Source of the DNA: a virus
Strand: one strand, 5' to 3'
Length of the DNA stretch: 64,000 bases
Virus record (IMG/VR): IMGVR_UViG_3300046328_000321
Location: 32,001 to 96,000 of that record
The notes beneath the pieces are model-generated. The model saw nothing but the letters and a program-made list of their open reading frames with translations, was not told where the DNA came from and did not search any database. Position 1 is the stretch's first letter; the number at the start of each line of letters is the position of its first letter. The translations under genes and the position numbers were made by a program. Positions 17,229 to 61,079 of the stretch are shown piece after piece.

Positions 17229-17350
17229 CCTGAATAAAATCCCCTAAGTCAAAAGCTTAGGGGATTTTTTTTTTCAACACCTTGCTATAATTTTTTGGTC
17301 ATATAAATTTTACTTGACTTATTGTGCCATCTCACCTAAAGGAAAGTATC

Positions 17351-17779: not shown

Positions 17780-18488
17780 ATTAATCGTTATAGAGGGTGT
17801 GGACGGTGTGGGTAAAAACACACAAGCTAAATTCATGACAACCTTGTTATCAGAGATAGTTCCTGTAAGGTTTTTCTCATTTCCTCAATACCATACAGAA
17901 ACTGGATTAGAGATTTCAAAATATCTTAACGGCAAAGCATCTGATCTTACAAGAATGCAAATTGCTGAACTCTATGCTAATGACAGGTTAGCTGTAAGAG
18001 ATGAAATCAATGAATGTCTTGACAAAGGTATTTTTGTAATATGTGATCGATACGTCATGTCTAACATAGCGTTTCAATCATCTTGGTATCTTAGCCGTGA
18101 TGGAGCTGGTGAGGAACAAGTCAAACTAGCTCAGAAAATAATTAACGATATTGATGAGTTAGAATATCAGCAAAATCAAATGCCTGTTCCTGATTTGACA
18201 TTGAGTTTGATTCTACCTGTAGATGTAACTATGGTTAGGGTTACAGGTAAAGATAGACGAGAATACACAGATGCAATTCAAGATATTCACGAAGTAGATG
18301 TGAAGTTACAAACACATGCTGCTGATTTTTTCAGTAAGATGGCTAACATGGGATTTTCAGAAACAATTAAAGTGATCAATTGTTGGAATTTTGTTAAAAA
18401 AGAACAATATTCTAAACAAGAGATTCATGAGAAAATTTGGTTTCCAAATGTTGTCAACCTCATTAAGAGTGTACGCGGGGATCGGTAA
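17766..18488 (+). CDS. tmk: Thymidylate kinase
   Basis: P-loop IEGVDGVGKNTQ, SFPQY, ICDRYVMSN, PDL. Confidence 0.92.
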   Translation: MVKGKLIVIEGVDGVGKNTQAKFMTTLLSEIVPVRFFSFPQYHTETGLEISKYLNGKASDLTRMQIAELYANDRLAVRDEINECLDKGIFVICDRYVMSNIAFQSSWYLSRDGAGEEQVKLAQKIINDIDELEYQQNQMPVPDLTLSLILPVDVTMVRVTGKDRREYTDAIQDIHEVDVKLQTHAADFFSKMANMGFSETIKVINCWNFVKKEQYSKQEIHEKIWFPNVVNLIKSVRGDR

Positions 18489-18993
18489 CAGAGATACACC
18501 TGAGTTCTACCTGAATAGAATGCGTAAAATAGCAACCCTTCTAGAGTTGCGAGGTTATGTGTTGCGATCAGGTGGGGCAGATGGAGCAGACTCTGCTTTC
18601 TACGAAGGTCTGTCAGACAAAGCCAACGCTGAGATATATTTGCCATGGGATGGTTATAATGGTCATTCCCATAAAGCATGTATCCCAGCGGAAGCTTACA
18701 GATTGGTGGAAAATCTGGTGCCAGACTTTCAATACAGATCACAAGCTGTACAACATCTGTTTGCCGGAAATGCGCAACAGATATTGGGTAAAGATCTGGA
18801 TTCACCTTCTGAATTTGTGATCTGTTATACCAGAGATGGTTATACAGGTCCTCACGACAGGAGCTTCAGGACAGGTGGTACCAAGATAGCCATAGACTTA
18901 GCAGTCAGTATAGGTATACCTGTGTTTAATATAAAAAGGATAGATCATCATAATACAGTGGTGAACTACTTCAACGATGATCACCTCCTTTAA
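18448..18993 (+). CDS. DprA/Smf-like (SLOG superfamily) protein
   Basis: YAGIGNRDTP, LRSGGADGADSAF, GGTKIAI motifs. Confidence 0.7.
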   Translation: MLSTSLRVYAGIGNRDTPEFYLNRMRKIATLLELRGYVLRSGGADGADSAFYEGLSDKANAEIYLPWDGYNGHSHKACIPAEAYRLVENLVPDFQYRSQAVQHLFAGNAQQILGKDLDSPSEFVICYTRDGYTGPHDRSFRTGGTKIAIDLAVSIGIPVFNIKRIDHHNTVVNYFNDDHLL

Positions 18994-19084
18994 ATCCCCT
19001 TTGTAAAAATACATAGTCATATATACTATACTTGACAATTGGGTCAATTTTTAATTGATACGGTTATTAAATGAGTGAAAACTT

Positions 19085-19157
19085 AGTCGTAATTCTCTGA
19101 TGAGTTCTGCGACTTTAAATAAAAGAACGAAACACCGTCCACAAGACGGTGTAAGAA
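19085..19157 (+). ncRNA. Type I hammerhead ribozyme
   Basis: CUGAUGA 19097-19103; stem II GUUCU/AGAAC; GAAA 19129-19132; stem III CACCGUC/GACGGUG; GUA cleavage triplet ending 19153; stem I UUCU/AGAA. Confidence 0.9.
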
Positions 19158-19480
19158 ATGTGTTAGCTTACGGTGATTACACACCATAAATCTTATTGGC
19201 TTATGGTCTAGCTGATGTTCTAACCAAACGTCAAACCGTGTGTCTATAGTTAGTTTCGCGAAAGAATACCCTTGGTCGGGATCTTAGCGCCGCTTCTATA
19301 GAAAGTTGTAAACTCTGGACTTGATCGCTCTAGAGAGCAGCCTATCATCCATTCGTATCTAATATGAGTGGATTTTAGAGTGCTATAAGATCTTACCGAC
19401 TATCAATCTACAGAACAATGTCAGCAGTTTATTCTGCGAAAATGACTTTGGTTCTTGATTGATAGTCGGTATTTTTTTTT
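19154..19480 (+). ncRNA. Unknown structured ncRNA released by the hammerhead
   Basis: ORF-free; several helices; closing 14-bp stem 19395-19408/19457-19470 followed by T-tract. Confidence 0.65.
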
Positions 19481-19541
19481 TTCTTTGGAAATATAAATAG
19501 TACCATACGGAGCATCTGCTCCGTATGGTACTTTATTATGT

Positions 19542-20126
19542 TTATGTATAAGTAAATGAAGTATCCTGACCTTCATGTAACTGGACTATTAACCCAGTAG
19601 CATCTGTACCAGCACTTACAACATCGATGGATATAATATCATCATCGTTTATAACAATACCGTTAGAAGGTAATGAATTGTTAAAATTTACAACAGCTGT
19701 TAGACTTGAGGTTTCATTAGCGTCAATAGACAGTAATGTACTTCCAGCTATATTAACACCATTCAAATTTACTTGTATGGTTACAAGTCCCATATTTGAA
19801 GGTATAAAAACACTGGCTCTTACATGTTTTAACAAGAAAGTTCGTGGAGATCTTAAATAAGCTACATTAACGCCTGCGGTTATAAACGTAGTAGTGTCTT
19901 TATACGCTAAAGCTAAAACTAGAGGATTAAAGATAGGTGAGTATTTTTTAACTGTGTCAGATCGAAGTCGTTCACTTGAAATATCAAGTAATGCTGTCGC
20001 ATTAACATCTGAGATATATGCATCTGTTTTATACTCATTACCGGTTTTAACATAGTAAAGAGTGGAAGCCTGTATGGCTGAAAGTAACGGTTTAGTCAAA
20101 ACCTTAGCTATACTAAGAATGTTCAT
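19542..20126 (-). CDS. Putative virion/tail accessory protein
   Basis: N-terminus resembles 16228-16800; beta-rich C-terminus. Confidence 0.6.
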   Translation of the reverse strand: MNILSIAKVLTKPLLSAIQASTLYYVKTGNEYKTDAYISDVNATALLDISSERLRSDTVKKYSPIFNPLVLALAYKDTTTFITAGVNVAYLRSPRTFLLKHVRASVFIPSNMGLVTIQVNLNGVNIAGSTLLSIDANETSSLTAVVNFNNSLPSNGIVINDDDIISIDVVSAGTDATGLIVQLHEGQDTSFTYT

Positions 20127-42555: not shown

Positions 42556-43686
42556 TTATTTAGAAAATTCATTAGCAAATATGATGTCATCCATAAACAG
42601 TTCATCTTTTTTCATAAAATCTAAACTGTTGTCTCTGTCTAATCTAGCAAGGTCATTTCTAAGATCTTGAATATAGAAATTATTTAATCTCCTACCCTTC
42701 TCAGGATTTTGAGTCAATAACAGTTCCATAGTGCGTCGTTTAGCCATTAACAAATACCACCAGACTTGTTTAGTAGGTGCTAAATCAGGCATCAAACCAA
42801 ACTCTTGAAAGTCTTCTGAATAGACAGAAGGTATCAGTTTTAATACACTATAGTAATGCATAGGTTTACGTTTTACATGTTTGACTAACTCATATAAGAC
42901 ATTATCCAAACTCGTATCTTGATCGATTATAGGAAAAGGGTGATTCTTATAAGTATCACCCATAGGCTGACCTGTTAGTAAATTATTAAACCTATTAAAG
43001 ATCACCAACTCTAAATGAGATCTCATCATGTTAGGTAGCACATACCGCATGATAAATTGCGAGATAGGGGCAATTCCACCATCTGTATTTATTCTAATGT
43101 CAAGTTGTTTTTCATAAAAAGCACGATACATCAGTAACAGTTTAGGTATATCTATCTTGACATAATTAATACCTTCTTCTGAATTATAATTAGGATTATC
43201 AGGTATTAGAAACCTAGTGTTACTTACATTGTGGGTAATAACCTCTACAGGTCTCATATTTTCCCAATTTCTATAAGCTTCTTCTACATCAAAGTAATCA
43301 GAAACAGAAAGTAAACAAGTCAATCCTCTGTATAAAAAATCTTTTCTGAATCTTCCAAAACTAACTTCTGATGTAAGTTCGAAATGGCGAGCGTAGTTAT
43401 TAACTCTTAAGTTATTAAGTTGGTTGAATCTGTATATATCCAAAGACATACCAGACAAAGCTGTTGTGATGATCCTGCAAAATAAATGTTTACTTCTAAC
43501 AGAAAATCCAGATGTCCTATAATAGTTTTCAATTTTAGTAATTTGTTTTTGAAAATTTCTTTTTATCAAATCAAATTGGCCTGGACGTATGAGGTCGTTG
43601 TTTTCTTGATAGTGTTTTGTGAACAACTCGTACATGATGATGTCTTTTTTAATAGAACTATAGGATTGCTGGTAAGATTGGAACAT
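42556..43686 (-). CDS. Conserved phiKZ-like core protein (start likely 43635)
   Basis: Divergent from chimallin, as recalled for phiKZ-like genomes. Confidence 0.6.
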   Translation of the reverse strand: MFQSYQQSYSSIKKDIIMYELFTKHYQENNDLIRPGQFDLIKRNFQKQITKIENYYRTSGFSVRSKHLFCRIITTALSGMSLDIYRFNQLNNLRVNNYARHFELTSEVSFGRFRKDFLYRGLTCLLSVSDYFDVEEAYRNWENMRPVEVITHNVSNTRFLIPDNPNYNSEEGINYVKIDIPKLLLMYRAFYEKQLDIRINTDGGIAPISQFIMRYVLPNMMRSHLELVIFNRFNNLLTGQPMGDTYKNHPFPIIDQDTSLDNVLYELVKHVKRKPMHYYSVLKLIPSVYSEDFQEFGLMPDLAPTKQVWWYLLMAKRRTMELLLTQNPEKGRRLNNFYIQDLRNDLARLDRDNSLDFMKKDELFMDDIIFANEFSK

Positions 43687-45916: not shown

Positions 45917-48748
45917 ATGCCTGTCATACAGGAAATCATTCAGTTTGATGATATGTTTCATAAACTACATCACACACCTACTCTTATTAACCACATAGCT
46001 TGCGCCACATTGGAAGATAGGGAGAAGGTAAAAGAAATTCTTACCACTCATCTTAACAGTGATCAGATAAGTTTAGTACCTTCATGTCAATGCGGAGCTA
46101 CTAAAGGTGAATATTCCAAGAGTATGGTTTGTCCCGTCTGTAATACAGAAGTAAAAACTTCTGTGACTACAGATATCGAACCAGTAGTCTGGCTGAAGCA
46201 ACCAGAGAGTGTGGATAAGTTGATCAGTCCTATCTTTCTGATGATGTTAATCAAAAGGTTTACCAAATCAGGATTCTCAGTGATCGAATGGTTATGTAAT
46301 ACAAATTACTCTTCGACATCTAAACCTCCTGATAAAGTATTAGCTAAAATCCAGACATGTGGGATTGAACGAGGTTATAACAACTTCGTTAGGAATTTTG
46401 ATCCTATTATGGATTTGTTGTTTTCATTCATTGAGTTTGCTCCTAAAACTCAAAAGTTTGAAATGAAACAAGAAGACAAAATAGATCATTTACAACAACT
46501 AATCAGAGATCACAGAAACGCGATCTTTAGTGAGTATTTACCCATCCCAAATAAGATCATTTTGATCTTTGACACCCAGCCATTAGGGACTTATACTGAT
46601 CCTTCAGTAATGAAAGCTGTGGATGCTATTAACACAATGGTGTCCATTGATCGAGATTTCTATGATCAGAGTTCAAAAACCAAACAGAACCGTACGATCA
46701 AAGCTTTGATGTTACTTTGTGATTTTTATAACGATACCTTATTGTTAATGGCACATAAGCATGGTCATTTCCGTAAGCACATGTTTGGTAGTAGAACCAA
46801 TTTTTCTTTCCGAGCTGTAATCACATCGATTACAGCCGGTAAGAATTATGATGAGATCGAAGCTCCATGGTGTATGGCAATCACAGCATTCCGTATTCAT
46901 TTGTTGAATAAACTTTTGAAATACGGTATGGGTCATAACGAAGGGTTAGGATTTTTGTATAAACATACGTACAAACACCATTCTCTTCTGGAAAGATTCA
47001 TGCAGGAGATGATTGATGAGACCCCAATGAAAGGTATTTTCATTTGTTTGCAACGCAATTAACTATTTAGGTTGCCTTTATCAGTAATGGTAAAGTAAAA
47101 TTCTCCTTAATTGACGGGAACATCCTGCTAAAAACTTGTACACCAAACTACAATAGAAATATATGTAGCGGCCAAGGTAACTACTTGGGTATGGTAAAAG
47201 AAACAAGTCTGGGATAATCCGCAGCCGAACTCTTAACCAGAAATGGAAAGAGATGGGTTCAACGACTAGTCGAAAGACGTAACTCTTAGCAAGAGTGAAA
47301 CAGGAGACCCCTTTTGTATAAAAGGGTGAAGATATAGTCTGCTCTCGTATGAATAATACGAGCGGGTGTCGTAGCACACCGGGTAAAGAGAGTAAGCTGT
47401 TTAAGCTGAGCGACTTTACTGGACAATGGCCGAGTTTGTTACAAGGGTCAGCTCAACGAGTGAAAATCACAAAGTTCAAAACTAACCCTATGGACTTGAC
47501 TATAGGGATGCACATCTTAACAGTGCGTGCTAATCATTATTGGCATTTAACCAGGTAACTGGTTAAAGAATCTCTTCGAATTGCTGGAAACTCCTTAGAG
47601 TCTCATTACCACTGCGAGCTGTAAAGCAAAGCCACGGTTTAAAAAGTATGAGAATTGGACAATCAGCAGCGAAACTTCCTACGGGAAGTACGTTCAACGA
47701 TCATCGGAGTTACGCCCGAGTAGAACCTCAAGCGAGGAAGAAGTGGAGAGCACCCTACTATTTATGAGGGTGAAGATATGATCTGTTCCTGTATGAAAAT
47801 ACAGGCGGGTGTCTTAGCACACCGAGTAAAGAGAGTAAGCTATTATAGCTGAGCGGCTTTACTGGACAATAAGCCAAATGCTGATCAAAAGGTCCTCTTA
47901 ACTTGCGAAGGTTAAGATGTATTTCCTGAATTGCTGGGAACTCTCGTTAGACTGTTGAACTAAAGCGGAGTGTGAAAACACAAACGTAAATGTTTGAAAA
48001 TCAGCAGGTAGAGACAATCAGCAGCTAAGACGCTAAAGACAGTTGTGAAACTGGCTATGCGTAAAGTTCAACGACTATCCGGTAGCACGGAGTAGACCCA
48101 TGAGGGTCAAAGTAGGAAACGTCTCTAGGAAGACGGTGATATAGTCTGCTCTCACATGAGAATGTGAGCGGGTGTCAAAGCACACCGGGTGAGGAATCGA
48201 AAGATGGCTTCACTGGACAAAAGGTTTGATGGTAGAGTATTGCCATCTCTAAACATTCTTAACTGCGGGAAACTCCTTAGAGCTTTGTTGACCAACCTGT
48301 GGTAGAAATACACACAGCGGCTGAACTAACTATTCAGATATGGTAAAACTAACAAAGATTGGACAATCCGCACCGAAGCTCCTAACTAAGTATATTAACA
48401 TATACTTACATGGAGTGTGGCCAACGACTATCCCGTAAGGGAGTACACTCAAGCGAGTGGAAACAGAATGTACCGAAAGGTAAAGATATAGTCTAATCAG
48501 ATATGAAAGTATCTGGATCCTTAAGCAAGATCGATGAGTAGTAGCGTACTCAGGTTGGTGCTAGAGAGTTATGGTTTATGGATGCTCTCAACGTATCCAT
48601 AGCTCTTGATCAGAAAATGTCAGATATGTGGTATCCACTTTCACCGGAGTTCAACATCTTCCAAATGACAAAACCATTTCAAGTATCGGGAAACATAGCG
48701 ATCCCTAAACCTAACATCGCTACCATTTCATCTTGGTTGGAAAACTAG
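45917..48748 (+). CDS. rpoC: nvRNAP beta-prime N-terminal subunit (phiKZ gp55-like), 5 exons: 45917-47059, 47430-47531, 47874-47885, 48225-48233, 48581-48748; 477 aa spliced
   Basis: Zinc finger CQC..CPVC, FRKHMFGSR, FRAVI; splicing restores QRNPSL and PNADFDGD in frame. Confidence 0.92.
47060..47429 (+). ncRNA. Group I intron 1 (370 nt, no ORF)
   Basis: P1 gcaau/guugc with U.G; P aattgacgggaa, Q aatccgcagc, R gttcaacgacta, S aagatatagtct; terminal G. Confidence 0.92.
47532..47873 (+). ncRNA. Group I intron 2 (342 nt, no ORF)
   Basis: P1 ugcu/ggca; P aattgctggaaa, Q aatcagcagc, P7 gatca/tgatc (compensatory variant); terminal G. Confidence 0.92.
47886..48224 (+). ncRNA. Group I intron 3 (339 nt, no ORF)
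   Basis: P1 gau/guc; P aattgctgggaa, Q aatcagcagc, R gttcaacgacta, S gatatagtct; terminal G. Confidence 0.9.
48234..48580 (+). ncRNA. Group I intron 4 (347 nt, no ORF)
   Basis: P1 gauggu/gccauc; P aactgcgggaaa, Q aatccgcacc, R ccaacgacta, S aagatatagtct; terminal G. Confidence 0.92.
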
Positions 48749-58610: not shown

Positions 58611-61079
58611 ACTGAAACTTCAATATGTGGGTATACAAGGACTTAATTCTTACTGTATGCATAATTCATCATCACGAGCTGTGATGTTTTCTTCTCACAT
58701 TGGACAACGTCTGGTAATTGAAGGAGCTCAACAGAAACTTGTACAAACTGGGCTTGAACAAGAATTTGGTAAATATACGTTCAATGTCAAGATGCCTGAG
58801 AATGGTCGTATTGTTGCTATCTTAGACAGGTATCCTCGTGGTGTAGGTAGTAAATCTCTTAATTTCAATCCAGAGACCTATGTCTTCTTTGAACGTGAAG
58901 ACAACAAGCAAGTAGATTATATTCTCATCCCGTACAAAGCTCAGTTCCATCAGAATTTTGGTTTTAAGTACAAGATGAATAAGAAAAATATCGGAAAGCT
59001 TCAGCCAGGTGCTTATATTGCAAAAGATACTATTTTTGCAGACAGTCCTGCTGTTTCTGACAATGGTAATTTCATGTTTGGTATCAATGCCAACATTGCC
59101 CTGATGTCCATTCCCTCAGTGGCTGAAGATGGCATTATGATCTCCAGAGACTTTCTACCTAAGTTAAAGTTCAAGATTTATGATACTCGACAAGTCAACT
59201 TTGGATCTAAACAATTTCCATTGAACCTTTATGGTACTTTGGATGAAGTAAAACCATTTCCTGAGATCGGAGATAAGATTCGAGAAGATGGTATTTTGAT
59301 GGCTTTTAGAGACTTTAACACAGCTCTGTCTCCTGTTGAAATGTCTAAGATGGATTTAATGGAAGTAGATCACACTTTTGATGAATGTGTATATGTACGA
59401 GGTGGTGTGGGTACTGTGGTTGACATTAAGATTACCAGAAACAACTCACCTATTAAGAACATGCCTGTGGAAATGTCATGTTATCTGAACCGTTACTGGG
59501 AAGCCAATCAAGCTTTTTATAAGAAAGTTATTGATTTAGAAGCCGGTCTGCGTAAAGATAACCGAATGAAATTTGGAACCACTGATATTTTAACAACATC
59601 AAAGTTTGATAAATTAGTTTATGAGGCTATGGTGCATACTAACCATAACTTCAATCAGTTTAAACAACCTCTTCAACTCCAATCACGTAAGTCTACTGTA
59701 GACGAATACCAGATACAATTTACTATTGAATACACCATTGAACCCTGTGAAGGATTCAAATTGACTGATAATCACGGTTTTTACTAGCCGCTTTTGACAG
59801 AGATGTCAATCGATCATTTTCCTAATTGCGGGGAACCACCTAAAGCTTCATTGACCAACTTAGTTACGAAAGTAAGTTAAGGGCTACGCTAACTACGTAG
59901 GTATGGTAAAACTAATGAAGATATATGGGCAATCCGCACCGAAGCTCCTAACTAAGTATATTAACATATACTTACATGGAGTGTGGCCAACGACTATCCC
60001 GTAAGGGAGTAGGCTCATGAGAGTCGAAATGGAAAGCGTCCTACTGTTGAACAGAGGATGAAGATATAGTCTGTTCCTACATGAAAGTGTGGGTGGGTGT
60101 CACAGCACACCGGGTGAAGAATCGAAAGACGGCTTCACTGGACAAAAAGGGAAAAGGTGTTATTTGTAAAGTAGAAGAACCTGAGAACATGCCTGTCGAT
60201 GAAAATGGCAACCGTGCCGACATCGTCATGGATGCAGCTTCTACTATCTCACGTATGAACTTAGGCAGGCTTTACGAGCAACACATGGCATCTGCCTTGC
60301 GCGACGTTACTCAAAATGTTCGCATGTTGTTTGGATTTGAACGATTGAAACCAACATCCATTAAAGCTGAGAATTTGCTAGACAGTTTTCCAATTCAAAA
60401 GATCGAAGAAGCTCATCAGTACGTGTTAGGTTTCTATAACCTTATTTCAGAAAAGCAATATAACTTTTATTCTAAACTGACAGATCCTAAGCAAATTGCC
60501 GAGCATATCTGTGATATCATATCCGATCACGTTTATGCATATATTCCTATTGATAAACAGATCAGTAGTAAAGATATCGTGAAACGCATCGAGAATTCCA
60601 TATACAAACCCGTTTATGGAAAAATTACCTATCGAGGTAATTCTGGTGAGGTCGTGCTTACTGAACGAAATGTGCGCATTGCTCCTTTATACATGATGTT
60701 ATTGGAAAAAATCGCTGATGATTGGACAGCTGTAGCCACTGGTAATCTTCAGCTACATGGTTTACTGGCTCAGGTCAACAGACGTGAAAAGCATTCAAGA
60801 CCTCATAGGAACACTCCTGTTCGCACCATCGGTGAAACAGAGGGACGTTTATTTGTAGGTTATTGTGGAAGAGAAGCGGTCGCTGAGATGTTGGATCGTT
60901 CAGGTAATCCTCTTGTACAAAGACACATGACTAGGAACATTCTTGAAGCCAATCGTCCAACAAATATCAATGAGATTGTAGATCGTAACTTGGTTAACTA
61001 CGGTAATACCAAGTCTGTACAGATCATCAACCATATGTTTACTTGTATGGGTTTTAAAACCAAATACGTTCCAGAATGA
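58597..61079 (+). CDS. rpoB: nvRNAP beta subunit (phiKZ gp71-73-like), exons 58597-59778 and 60150-61079; 703 aa spliced
   Basis: NSSSRAVM, AEDG, spliced GFKLTDNHG-GKGVI, SRMNLGRLYE, GETE. Confidence 0.92.
59779..60149 (+). ncRNA. Group I intron 5 (371 nt, no ORF)
   Basis: P1 cggu/gccg; P aattgcggggaa, Q aatccgcacc, R ccaacgacta, S aagatatagtct; terminal G. Confidence 0.92.

Follow-up and report, generated by a model that had tools for sequence, protein, structure and literature searches.

[quoted passage not shown] Judged by sequence and architecture, the family appears to link loci of distant phages as versions of one RNA, with a core that spans two unrelated lytic groups. We favor, at a probability of about 60%, the reading that this is a dedicated gene for a stable RNA, matured by the hammerhead and acting in trans along with the phage tRNAs. 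The sequence-only reading of the locus had already proposed a novel structured phage RNA with a ribozyme-defined 5' end. Both proposals held, as no Rfam family matched, the homologues show covariation, and the core and pseudoknot of the ribozyme covary across lineages, with a predicted 5' end at 19154.

The window corresponds to bases 32001-96000 of the 113-kb IMG/VR record IMGVR_UViG_3300046328_000321, which is estimated to be about 43% complete. Its DNA was found in 14 freshwater metagenome runs, all of them DNA runs, and the contigs from these runs were identical, of low coverage and free of variants. The record encodes a chimallin-type nuclear shell protein, a phiKZ-type DNA polymerase, a large terminase and split RNA polymerase beta subunits of both the virion and non-virion types, and the phage is therefore a nucleus-forming (chimallivirus-like) jumbo phage. 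The RNA locus sits inside a 548-nt gap free of ORFs and is laid out as follows:

18391-18993, + strand: DprA-like gene, one flank of the ORF-free gap
19015-19037, + strand: promoter-like motif of the CATATAnTnTACTTGAC type, a recurring motif and the putative start of the unit
19081-19153, + strand: type I (open stem I) hammerhead with a pseudoknot between loop II and the 5' flank, its anatomy read from the sequence
19154-19392, + strand: conserved RNA core of 239 nt with a predicted 5'-hydroxyl end, defined by homologues and covariation
19395-19481, + strand: intrinsic terminator (14-15 bp stem with a hairpin inside it, then 11 U), from sequence and fold
19542-20126, - strand: convergent gene of unknown function, the other flank of the gap

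The absence of coding potential and the relative GC richness noted earlier for this locus were both confirmed: the longest ORF overlapping 19154-19480 measures at most 51 amino acids, and the G+C content of 19154-19392 reaches 40.6%, higher than the genome value of 36.9% and than the 32.1% averaged over 51 ORF-free segments. The remark that the RNA has no tRNA or tmRNA ends was also borne out by ARAGORN, whose sole prediction in the window was a tRNA-Arg at 32008-32084, with no tRNA or tmRNA at the RNA locus. Identity with either class was rejected, there being no cloverleaf and no tRNA-like ends. Four copies of the CATATAnTnTACTTGAC-type motif occur in the 113-kb record, every one on the + strand, and the three others stand about 30 nt upstream of a ribosome-binding site and start codon. 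Three matches were counted in the window versus 0.24 expected from shuffles, and the 19015-19037 motif is very likely, by this sequence recurrence, a phage promoter. At the other end of the unit, the final 14-bp stem and U-tract that had been described before were recovered as a terminator whose strand 19395-19408 pairs with 19457-19470, directly followed by the 11 U; our terminator scan handles loops of up to 8 nt and therefore missed this longer-looped structure. Enclosed by the promoter motif and the terminator, the locus is thus a self-contained transcription unit without a protein gene and, since the next gene is convergent, there is no downstream target for regulation.

The closest DprA-like homologues showed 83% and 72% identity; other viral contigs of relatives were gathered through alignment of DprA-like homologues. 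The relatives G001 (IMGVR_UViG_3300021440_000015) and G002 (IMGVR_UViG_3300046313_000313) carry the hammerhead plus the RNA (nhmmer E values of 5e-27 and 5e-28). Conservation between these two records and the window runs from the pseudoknot strand of the hammerhead to about 8 nt past the last hairpin of the RNA, so only the hammerhead and the core are common, and the promoter, the terminator and the other flanks differ. G001 and G002 have additional RNA on both sides, 570 nt upstream and a 3' extension of 350 nt, the window phage having the core alone. A hammerhead search of related records reached two further carriers, G022 and G023, in which the ribozyme is followed by the same 3' module, namely, a helix, an unpaired AAGUUGU, a variable hairpin and a long hairpin with the base RGCAGCCU.../...GRGUGCU. 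BLAST with the G022 hammerhead then matched the cultured N4-like Pseudomonas phages ZC03 and ZC08, where the space from tRNA-Met to tRNA-Asn is taken up by a hammerhead and an RNA of 254 nt. The hammerhead cleavage site lies directly at the 5' end of the RNA in the window, G001, G002, G022, G023, ZC03 and ZC08.

The hammerhead itself comprises the following parts:

19085-19089, + strand: pseudoknot strand AGUCG in the 5' flank, partner of the loop strand CGACU
19090-19096, + strand: 5' strand of stem I
19097-19103, + strand: CUGAUGA core
19104-19108 with 19124-19128, + strand: stem II, 5 bp, with a 15-nt loop
19110-19114, + strand: loop II strand CGACU
19129-19132, + strand: GAAA core
19133-19139 with 19145-19151, + strand: stem III, 7 bp
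19152, + strand: U16.1
19153, + strand: A17, with the predicted cut on its 3' side (GUA triplet)

On comparative sequence evidence, 19081-19153 is a complete type I hammerhead whose core, stems and pseudoknot are kept and covary. Stem I is open, its 5' flank pairing with the first bases of the product. The same layout was observed in G001, G002, G022, ZC03 and Klebsiella phage Miami and recurs across six lineages; stems II and III vary in sequence while their pairing holds in all six, and the pseudoknot changes on both sides across lineages (AGUCG/CGACU, AGCCUU/AAGGCU and ACGUCG/CGACGU). Scores against the Rfam models were below the gathering cut-offs, at 13.9 bits for the window hammerhead with RF00008 (cut-off, 48.5) and 16.1 bits for those of G001 and G002 with RF00163 (cut-off, 34); these models cover forms with a long loop II and a pseudoknot poorly. 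Pseudoknotted type I hammerheads are known from phages and prophages (Perreault et al. 2011, PMC3088659; Rfam RF00163 / clan CL00010), and such pseudoknots are required for fast cleavage and are the usual tertiary brace of natural hammerheads (PMC3088659). The ribozyme described here resembles the phage type I hammerheads of that study (PMC3088659) in its CUGAUGA and GAAA cores, three stems, GUA triplet and 5-6 bp pseudoknot, but differs in that the ribozyme is not the product and instead would make the 5' end of a downstream conserved RNA. From this anatomy, we infer that the hammerhead cleaves itself after A19153. The hammerhead of phage Miami, which is of the same subtype, lies upstream of a tubulin gene, and the RNA downstream of it matched neither of our covariance models, R1 and R2.

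Hammerheads are common in the intergenic regions of phages and at sites between cistrons (PMC3088659), and the locus described here lies between convergent genes with two terminators. Both facts would suit a processed leader, trailer or spacer that separates or stabilizes neighboring transcripts or insulates convergent transcription. We nevertheless consider such a role very unlikely, as the block made of hammerhead and core is conserved while its neighbors change, its motifs are common to unrelated phages and, within the window, no gene shares the transcript.

Covariance model R1 represents the complete RNA and was built on sequences of the window clade only (without G022, G023 and ZC03); searched with filters off, it found the G023 RNA over its full length and at the right place (E = 6e-5), in an alignment that lines up AAACC..UACG, AAGUUGU, AGCAGCC and GAGUGCU. 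The same model gave weak matches, also at the right place, on G022 (E = 2.4) and ZC03 (E = 3.3); since these are not significant, the proposed membership of G022 and ZC03 is argued from motifs and architecture. Model R2, which gives the window 90 bits with the window among its source sequences, misses ZC03. The order AAGUUGU then AGCAGCC found in the ZC03 RNA was seen in 104 of 2,000,000 shuffles (5e-5), and the AGCAGCC hairpin of this phage has 18 positions, 17 of them paired and one a purine-purine mismatch where the family usually has it. On these sequence features, ZC03 and ZC08 are probable members of the family.

Other searches delimited its spread. BLAST of the locus and the surrounding 10 kb against GenBank phages gave no match, and searches for related loci with single proteins found nothing. 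Motif-pattern scans of IMG/VR and JGI metagenomes returned only the two close relatives, G023 or chance matches in coding DNA; a motif scan of GTDB genomes gave 20 matches, none with a hammerhead. The pattern match in L014 was attributed to chance, and weak covariance matches in L079, L088 and L089 were rejected since they fell inside coding DNA. R1 likewise drew no match from three additional records obtained by way of the DprA-like gene, and before its filters were switched off it matched nothing in 53 other related records. Across 50 chimallivirus-like records, R1 and R2 found no members besides G022 and G023. With the 48 others lacking a copy, the RNA is dispensable for the group and, being absent from most related phages, the family is accessory rather than part of a core function.

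The conserved RNA has the following elements:

19161-19165 with 19388-19392, + strand: weak closing helix, with only three pairs in this phage
19167-19242, + strand: 5' domain, a helix of 19167-19174 with 19235-19242 (GC..ACGGU/ACCGU..G) around two hairpins
19184-19191/19200-19206, + strand: first hairpin of the 5' domain
19214-19219/19227-19232, + strand: second hairpin of the 5' domain, with the loop CUAACCA
19243-19302, + strand: middle domain, a long irregular helix of 19243-19264 with 19283-19302 whose 3' strand abuts AAGUUGU
19269-19280, + strand: hairpin CCC-UUGGUC-GGG capping the middle domain, kept in relatives with compensatory changes
19303-19312, + strand: unpaired junction strand AAGUUGUAAA, with AAGUUGU kept in all five lineages
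19313-19335, + strand: variable hairpin CUCUGGA/UCUAGAG with the loop CUUGAUCGC, 100% paired, with two pairs changed on both sides
19336-19384, + strand: long hairpin with the conserved base AGCA-GC-CUA... paired with ...UAG-AG-UGCU
19385-19392, + strand: short 3' tail ending in AUC, which may close the RNA by pairing with 19161-19165

Including the terminator (19140-19482, + strand), the predicted fold reaches -110 kcal/mol (z = -5.4 versus shuffles), and the core alone -69.9 kcal/mol (z = -3.4). The complementary strand folds well too, and the strand was therefore assigned by the hammerhead, the U-run, the promoter motif and the G-U pairs, which are numerous, in keeping with the + strand. 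An alignment of four sequences (the window clade and G023) showed 91.6% of cells paired, with 29 of 71 pairs changed on both sides. None of 500 shuffles reached this pairing and slid partners paired at about 40%, figures that are flattered since the alignment was fitted to the model, and alignments of the five lineages are small. The middle-domain helix contributes ten pairs changed on both sides out of 19. For the closing helix, four of five pairs changed on both sides with 85% of cells paired, again in the model-fitted alignment. In the 5' domain, the helix reads ACGGU/ACCGU in the window, ACGAU/AUCGU in G001 and G002, and AGGGU/ACCCU in G023, and by eye UACGGUU in G022 is able to pair with AACCGUA. 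The long hairpin forms a 16-pair helix across four lineages, with six pairs changed on both sides, and the variable hairpin is longer and different in G022, G023 and ZC03. Within the middle domain, UACCCUUGGUCGGGA is invariant in the window clade, and the unpaired strands CAAA, UACCCUU and AAGUUGU are conserved between the helical domains. Conserved unpaired motifs together with compensatory changes point to selection on the fold.

These comparisons also sorted the helices proposed by the sequence-only reading. Three of them, accauaa/uuauggu, cucugga/ucuagag and auccauuc/gaguggau, are kept by the relatives with compensatory changes. The pairing acggu/accgu is equally kept and compensated as a helix, but its interpretation as a pseudoknot fell: guuagcu/agcugau, with three of its seven pairs broken in relatives, is not kept, which leaves acggu/accgu as a plain nested helix. 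The multibranch closure of 19274-19290 with 19380-19401 was not upheld, as GGUCGG/CCGACU is broken in relatives (60% of cells paired). Every lineage keeps the AGCA/UGCU base of the long hairpin, with which the GCGC/GUGC portion of the closure is in competition, and the CCGACU strand of the closure is part of the terminator. This terminator is specific to the window phage, the sequence of relatives diverging past the core; the conserved RNA therefore ends near 19392 and not at 19480. The RNA of about 320 nt first described thus stands as a structured unit and is reduced in length to 239 conserved nt plus a lineage-specific terminator.

The same strand bears on a role in regulation. A riboswitch-like switch controlling the 19395-19481 terminator would exploit the ability of GGUCGG (19274-19279) to pair with CCGACU (19396-19401) in competition with the terminator stem, and the sequence 3' of the core does vary by lineage. 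However, both the terminator and the competing strand are missing in relatives, where the alternative pairing is broken, and the conformational switch suggested earlier therefore finds no comparative support; there is also no downstream gene to regulate. A guide RNA for a nuclease, considered along with the switch, has no nuclease, TnpB, IscB, Cas or reverse transcriptase gene linked to the unit. Neither idea fits the ZC03 RNA, which ends about 10 nt past the last hairpin, at the next tRNA, and we regard the pair of them as highly improbable. Guide and antitoxin roles alike lack support from context, with no linked nuclease or toxin gene and with neighbors that differ between lineages.

No match was found in the window with Rfam 15 at the gathering score, and relaxing the threshold to E values up to 10 on 18900-19650 yielded only chance-level matches to hairpin families. 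Rfam also gave no covering match on the homologous RNAs of G022, G023 and ZC03. No model resemblance was detected to GOLLD, ROOL, RNase P, tmRNA, SRP, 6S, T-box, drum, HEARO or rRNA. The literature on jumbo-phage transcriptomes and biology describes other small RNAs and group I introns, and not the window RNA. Several candidate identities were tried and rejected. Mimicry of the 3' end of 16S rRNA or of the L11-binding region of 23S rRNA was dropped because local alignment scores equaled those of shuffles. An RNase P-like P4 pairing was discarded since AAGUUGU has, by inspection, no conserved partner strand and no Rfam match. A supposed association of drum RNAs with hammerheads was not borne out by a published account.

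GOLLD (RF01998) and ROOL (RF03087) are large ornate RNAs of phages and prophages that often adjoin tRNA islands, with which they are possibly co-transcribed (PMC5737381; bioRxiv 10.1101/2024.12.08.627333). The family described here shares with them the status of a structured phage RNA of unknown function and the habit of lying near tRNA islands. It differs in size (190-260 nt, versus 580-800 nt for GOLLD and ROOL) and in having a 5' end that a hammerhead is predicted to make, and neither GOLLD nor ROOL matches the window RNA in sequence or by model. A self-assembling ornate RNA, one that, like ROOL and GOLLD, would use loop-loop contacts to build homo-oligomers, would agree with this tRNA-near habit (PMC5737381; bioRxiv 10.1101/2024.12.08.627333) and with the complementarity of two loops invariant in the clade, ACCAA (19221-19225) and UUGGU (19272-19276), which could kiss. 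Yet the invariance of these loops means that they provide no covariation, the corresponding segments are not loops in G022, G023 and ZC03, and the contact could equally form within one molecule. With an RNA two to three times smaller than ROOL and GOLLD and without homology to them, we judge such assembly unlikely.

Three of the five lineages have the unit within a tRNA array or next to one. In G023, it stands within the array, in the order tRNA-Thr, hammerhead, RNA and, further on, tRNA-Gln; in G001 and G002, tRNA-Thr, an HNH gene and tRNA-Leu precede an ORF-free island of 1.3 kb that contains it. The unit stands alone in the window phage, as it does in G022, a record devoid of tRNA genes. 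Neighboring genes and the position of the unit differ between lineages, even among close relatives, and an HNH gene and group I introns adjoin it in G001/G002 and G023. This variable position, the HNH and intron neighbors and the patchy distribution (five lineages in two unrelated groups and none of the 48 related records) might all be read as signs of a selfish or neutral cassette, a mobile module of hammerhead and RNA that spreads between phages without benefit to them, often entering tRNA clusters beside homing endonucleases. The module itself, however, codes for neither an endonuclease nor an integrase nor a reverse transcriptase and, in the window phage, is equipped with a promoter and a terminator of its own. 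Its fold, to judge by the conserved unpaired motifs and the compensatory changes, is under selection, so that we find this explanation quite unlikely.

A protein partner was sought through the ORFs common to carriers, and none was found. Among ZC03 ORFs, only the DprA-like gene has a homologue in every carrier genome, and all 21 of the 21 complete chimallivirus-like records possess this gene, although most of them lack the RNA. As a core gene of the whole group, its sharing says nothing specific to the RNA, and the DprA-like protein was dropped as a candidate partner. The further ORFs shared with carriers encode a dCTP deaminase and an HNH endonuclease.

The reading that we prefer, a dedicated gene for a stable hammerhead-matured RNA, would operate as follows. 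Transcription would start from the phage-type promoter at 19015-19037, and the nascent RNA would fold into the pseudoknotted type I hammerhead and be cut after A19153. This cut would remove a leader of about 115 nt and leave the 239-nt core with a 5'-hydroxyl, while the terminator at 19395-19481 would supply the 3' end in the window phage. In relatives, the hammerhead would release the RNA from a precursor upstream of it, either tRNA or RNA, and in ZC03 the following tRNA, instead of a terminator, would set the 3' end. Given this varied upstream context across lineages, the hammerhead seems to serve for detaching the RNA from any sequence that precedes it. The product, made along with the phage tRNAs, may act in trans, by binding a protein or a tRNA or translation component, as a scaffold or decoy, and would have no role as a cis-regulator. 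We infer its accumulation and its binding role in trans from genomic context.

A more specific function was also weighed. The junction with its unpaired strands could be the active or binding site of a catalytic RNA, or of one directed at tRNA or the ribosome, as suggested by conserved single-stranded nucleotides between covarying helices and by the embedding of the unit in tRNA arrays. The RNA island of G023, which also carries an 88-nt mimic of the L1 stalk of 23S rRNA, is compatible with this idea. Against it, the RNA is unlike the models of RNase P, T-box, tmRNA and rRNA, it resembles E. coli 16S and 23S rRNA no more than shuffles do, and no substrate can be named. The L1-stalk mimic, moreover, is missing from the window phage and from three of the four other carrier records searched (G001, G002, G022 and G023). 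This function therefore seems to us improbable too. A broader extension of our preferred reading, which we put forward as tentative and rather doubtful, is that the RNA belongs to a new class made from tRNA operons, matured by a ribozyme and either catalytic or acting on the translation or tRNA machinery of the host. Such a class is envisaged for lytic phages that bring their own RNA polymerases, namely, nucleus-forming jumbo phages and N4-like phages.

Phage T4 offers another likeness by description. Its species 1 and species 2 RNAs (rnaC and rnaD) are stable RNAs of unknown function within the tRNA gene cluster, about 120-140 nt long, and are processed from the tRNA operon by host tRNA-processing enzymes, without a ribozyme. 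Like them, RNAs of the family would be small and stable and would come, in some carriers, from a tRNA operon, with the difference that T4 uses no ribozyme. Structured phage RNAs beside tRNA genes, such as GOLLD, ROOL and the T4 stable RNAs, are functional mysteries, and the family described here now joins them, compact at about 240 nt and with an evident means of maturation. As this family is apparently present in ZC03 and ZC08, both cultured Pseudomonas aeruginosa phages, expression, partners and phenotype would be testable.

As a separate observation, the L1-stalk copy in G023 hints at islands of RNAs that mimic or engage the translation apparatus.

A further RNA element was found in G023 (IMGVR_UViG_3300028536_000014), a distant jumbo-phage record in which a hammerhead is followed by the same 3′ RNA module, and was detected with the Rfam LSU model and by pairwise alignment:

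L080 603-692 (the G023 stretch; = G023:C1:75270-75359), minus strand: L1-stalk copy or mimic (23S rRNA helices 76-78), ~88 nt

This element matched positions 2126-2215 of the LSU model at 63.6 bits, above the cut-off, and aligned to E. coli 23S rRNA 2100-2186 at ~78% identity, with a local score of 90 against a maximum of 35 for shuffled sequences. It was not reported when its sub-range was re-scanned alone, and was recovered by the pairwise alignment and a second search. The element lies ~600 nt past the hammerhead-led RNA of G023, within the same ORF-poor tRNA/RNA island, and no L1-stalk mimic was present in any of the four other records searched, namely, the window phage (G000), its close relatives G001 and G002, and the distant G022. 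The mimic could serve as a decoy, with ribosomal protein uL1 or tRNA elbows as its target. The covariance model of the hammerhead-led RNA gave a second, weak match over its full length (E 0.079) on the minus strand of G023 (L080 850-1051), ~250 nt further downstream than the first copy; this match may represent either a degenerate second copy or a chance match.

In G001 (IMGVR_UViG_3300021440_000015), the hammerhead-led RNA is flanked by two ORF-free stretches, both conserved in G002 (IMGVR_UViG_3300046313_000313), where their counterparts lie in L013:

L012 6580-7150 (G001): 570-nt stretch upstream of the RNA
L012 7470-7820 (G001): ~350-nt stretch downstream of the RNA

Neither stretch had a counterpart in the window phage or a match in Rfam.

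The pseudoknotted hammerhead subtype of the window also occurs in the cultured nucleus-forming phages Miami (MT701590), YC1, BUCTxx100, and VB_ZK_P1, with Klebsiella, Stenotrophomonas, and Raoultella as hosts. At the Miami locus, the only one read among these phages, the hammerhead (MT701590 222403-222448, in L091) precedes the tubulin (PhuZ) gene, within a gap that carries no annotation; the RNA downstream of the hammerhead did not match the hammerhead-led RNA models.

In the window, the hammerhead-led RNA adjoins a DprA-like (SLOG-type) gene (18391-18993). Each of the 21 complete chimallivirus-like records searched contains a homologue of this gene, as does the N4-like Pseudomonas phage ZC03, so it appears to belong to the core gene set of these phages. 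The motif CATATAnTnTACTTGAC recurs on the plus strand at window positions 17297, 19015, 35671, and 58059, ~30 nt upstream of start codons, and probably represents a promoter class of a phage RNA polymerase.

Immediately behind the 5′ portion (45917-47062) of an RNA polymerase beta-subunit gene, four group I introns lie head to tail (47059-48515); these and two others elsewhere in the window all scored above the Rfam cut-off:

47059-47362: intron 1 of the tandem run
47522-47805: intron 2
47849-48168: intron 3
48209-48515: intron 4
59769-60093: intron between RNA polymerase gene pieces
31576-31824: intron in the tRNA-Leu region

Upstream of the window, the second largest ORF-free segment of the record (G000:C1:11460-12496; 1038 nt, 39.6% G+C) may be another RNA locus. 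The tRNA array of ZC03 contains two more unannotated gaps of ~230 and ~165 nt (L122 2765-2996 and 3079-3242; ZC03 42765-42996 and 43079-43242), and ARAGORN classified its annotated tRNA-Arg (42997-43078) as an unusual tRNA whose anticodon has only two bases.
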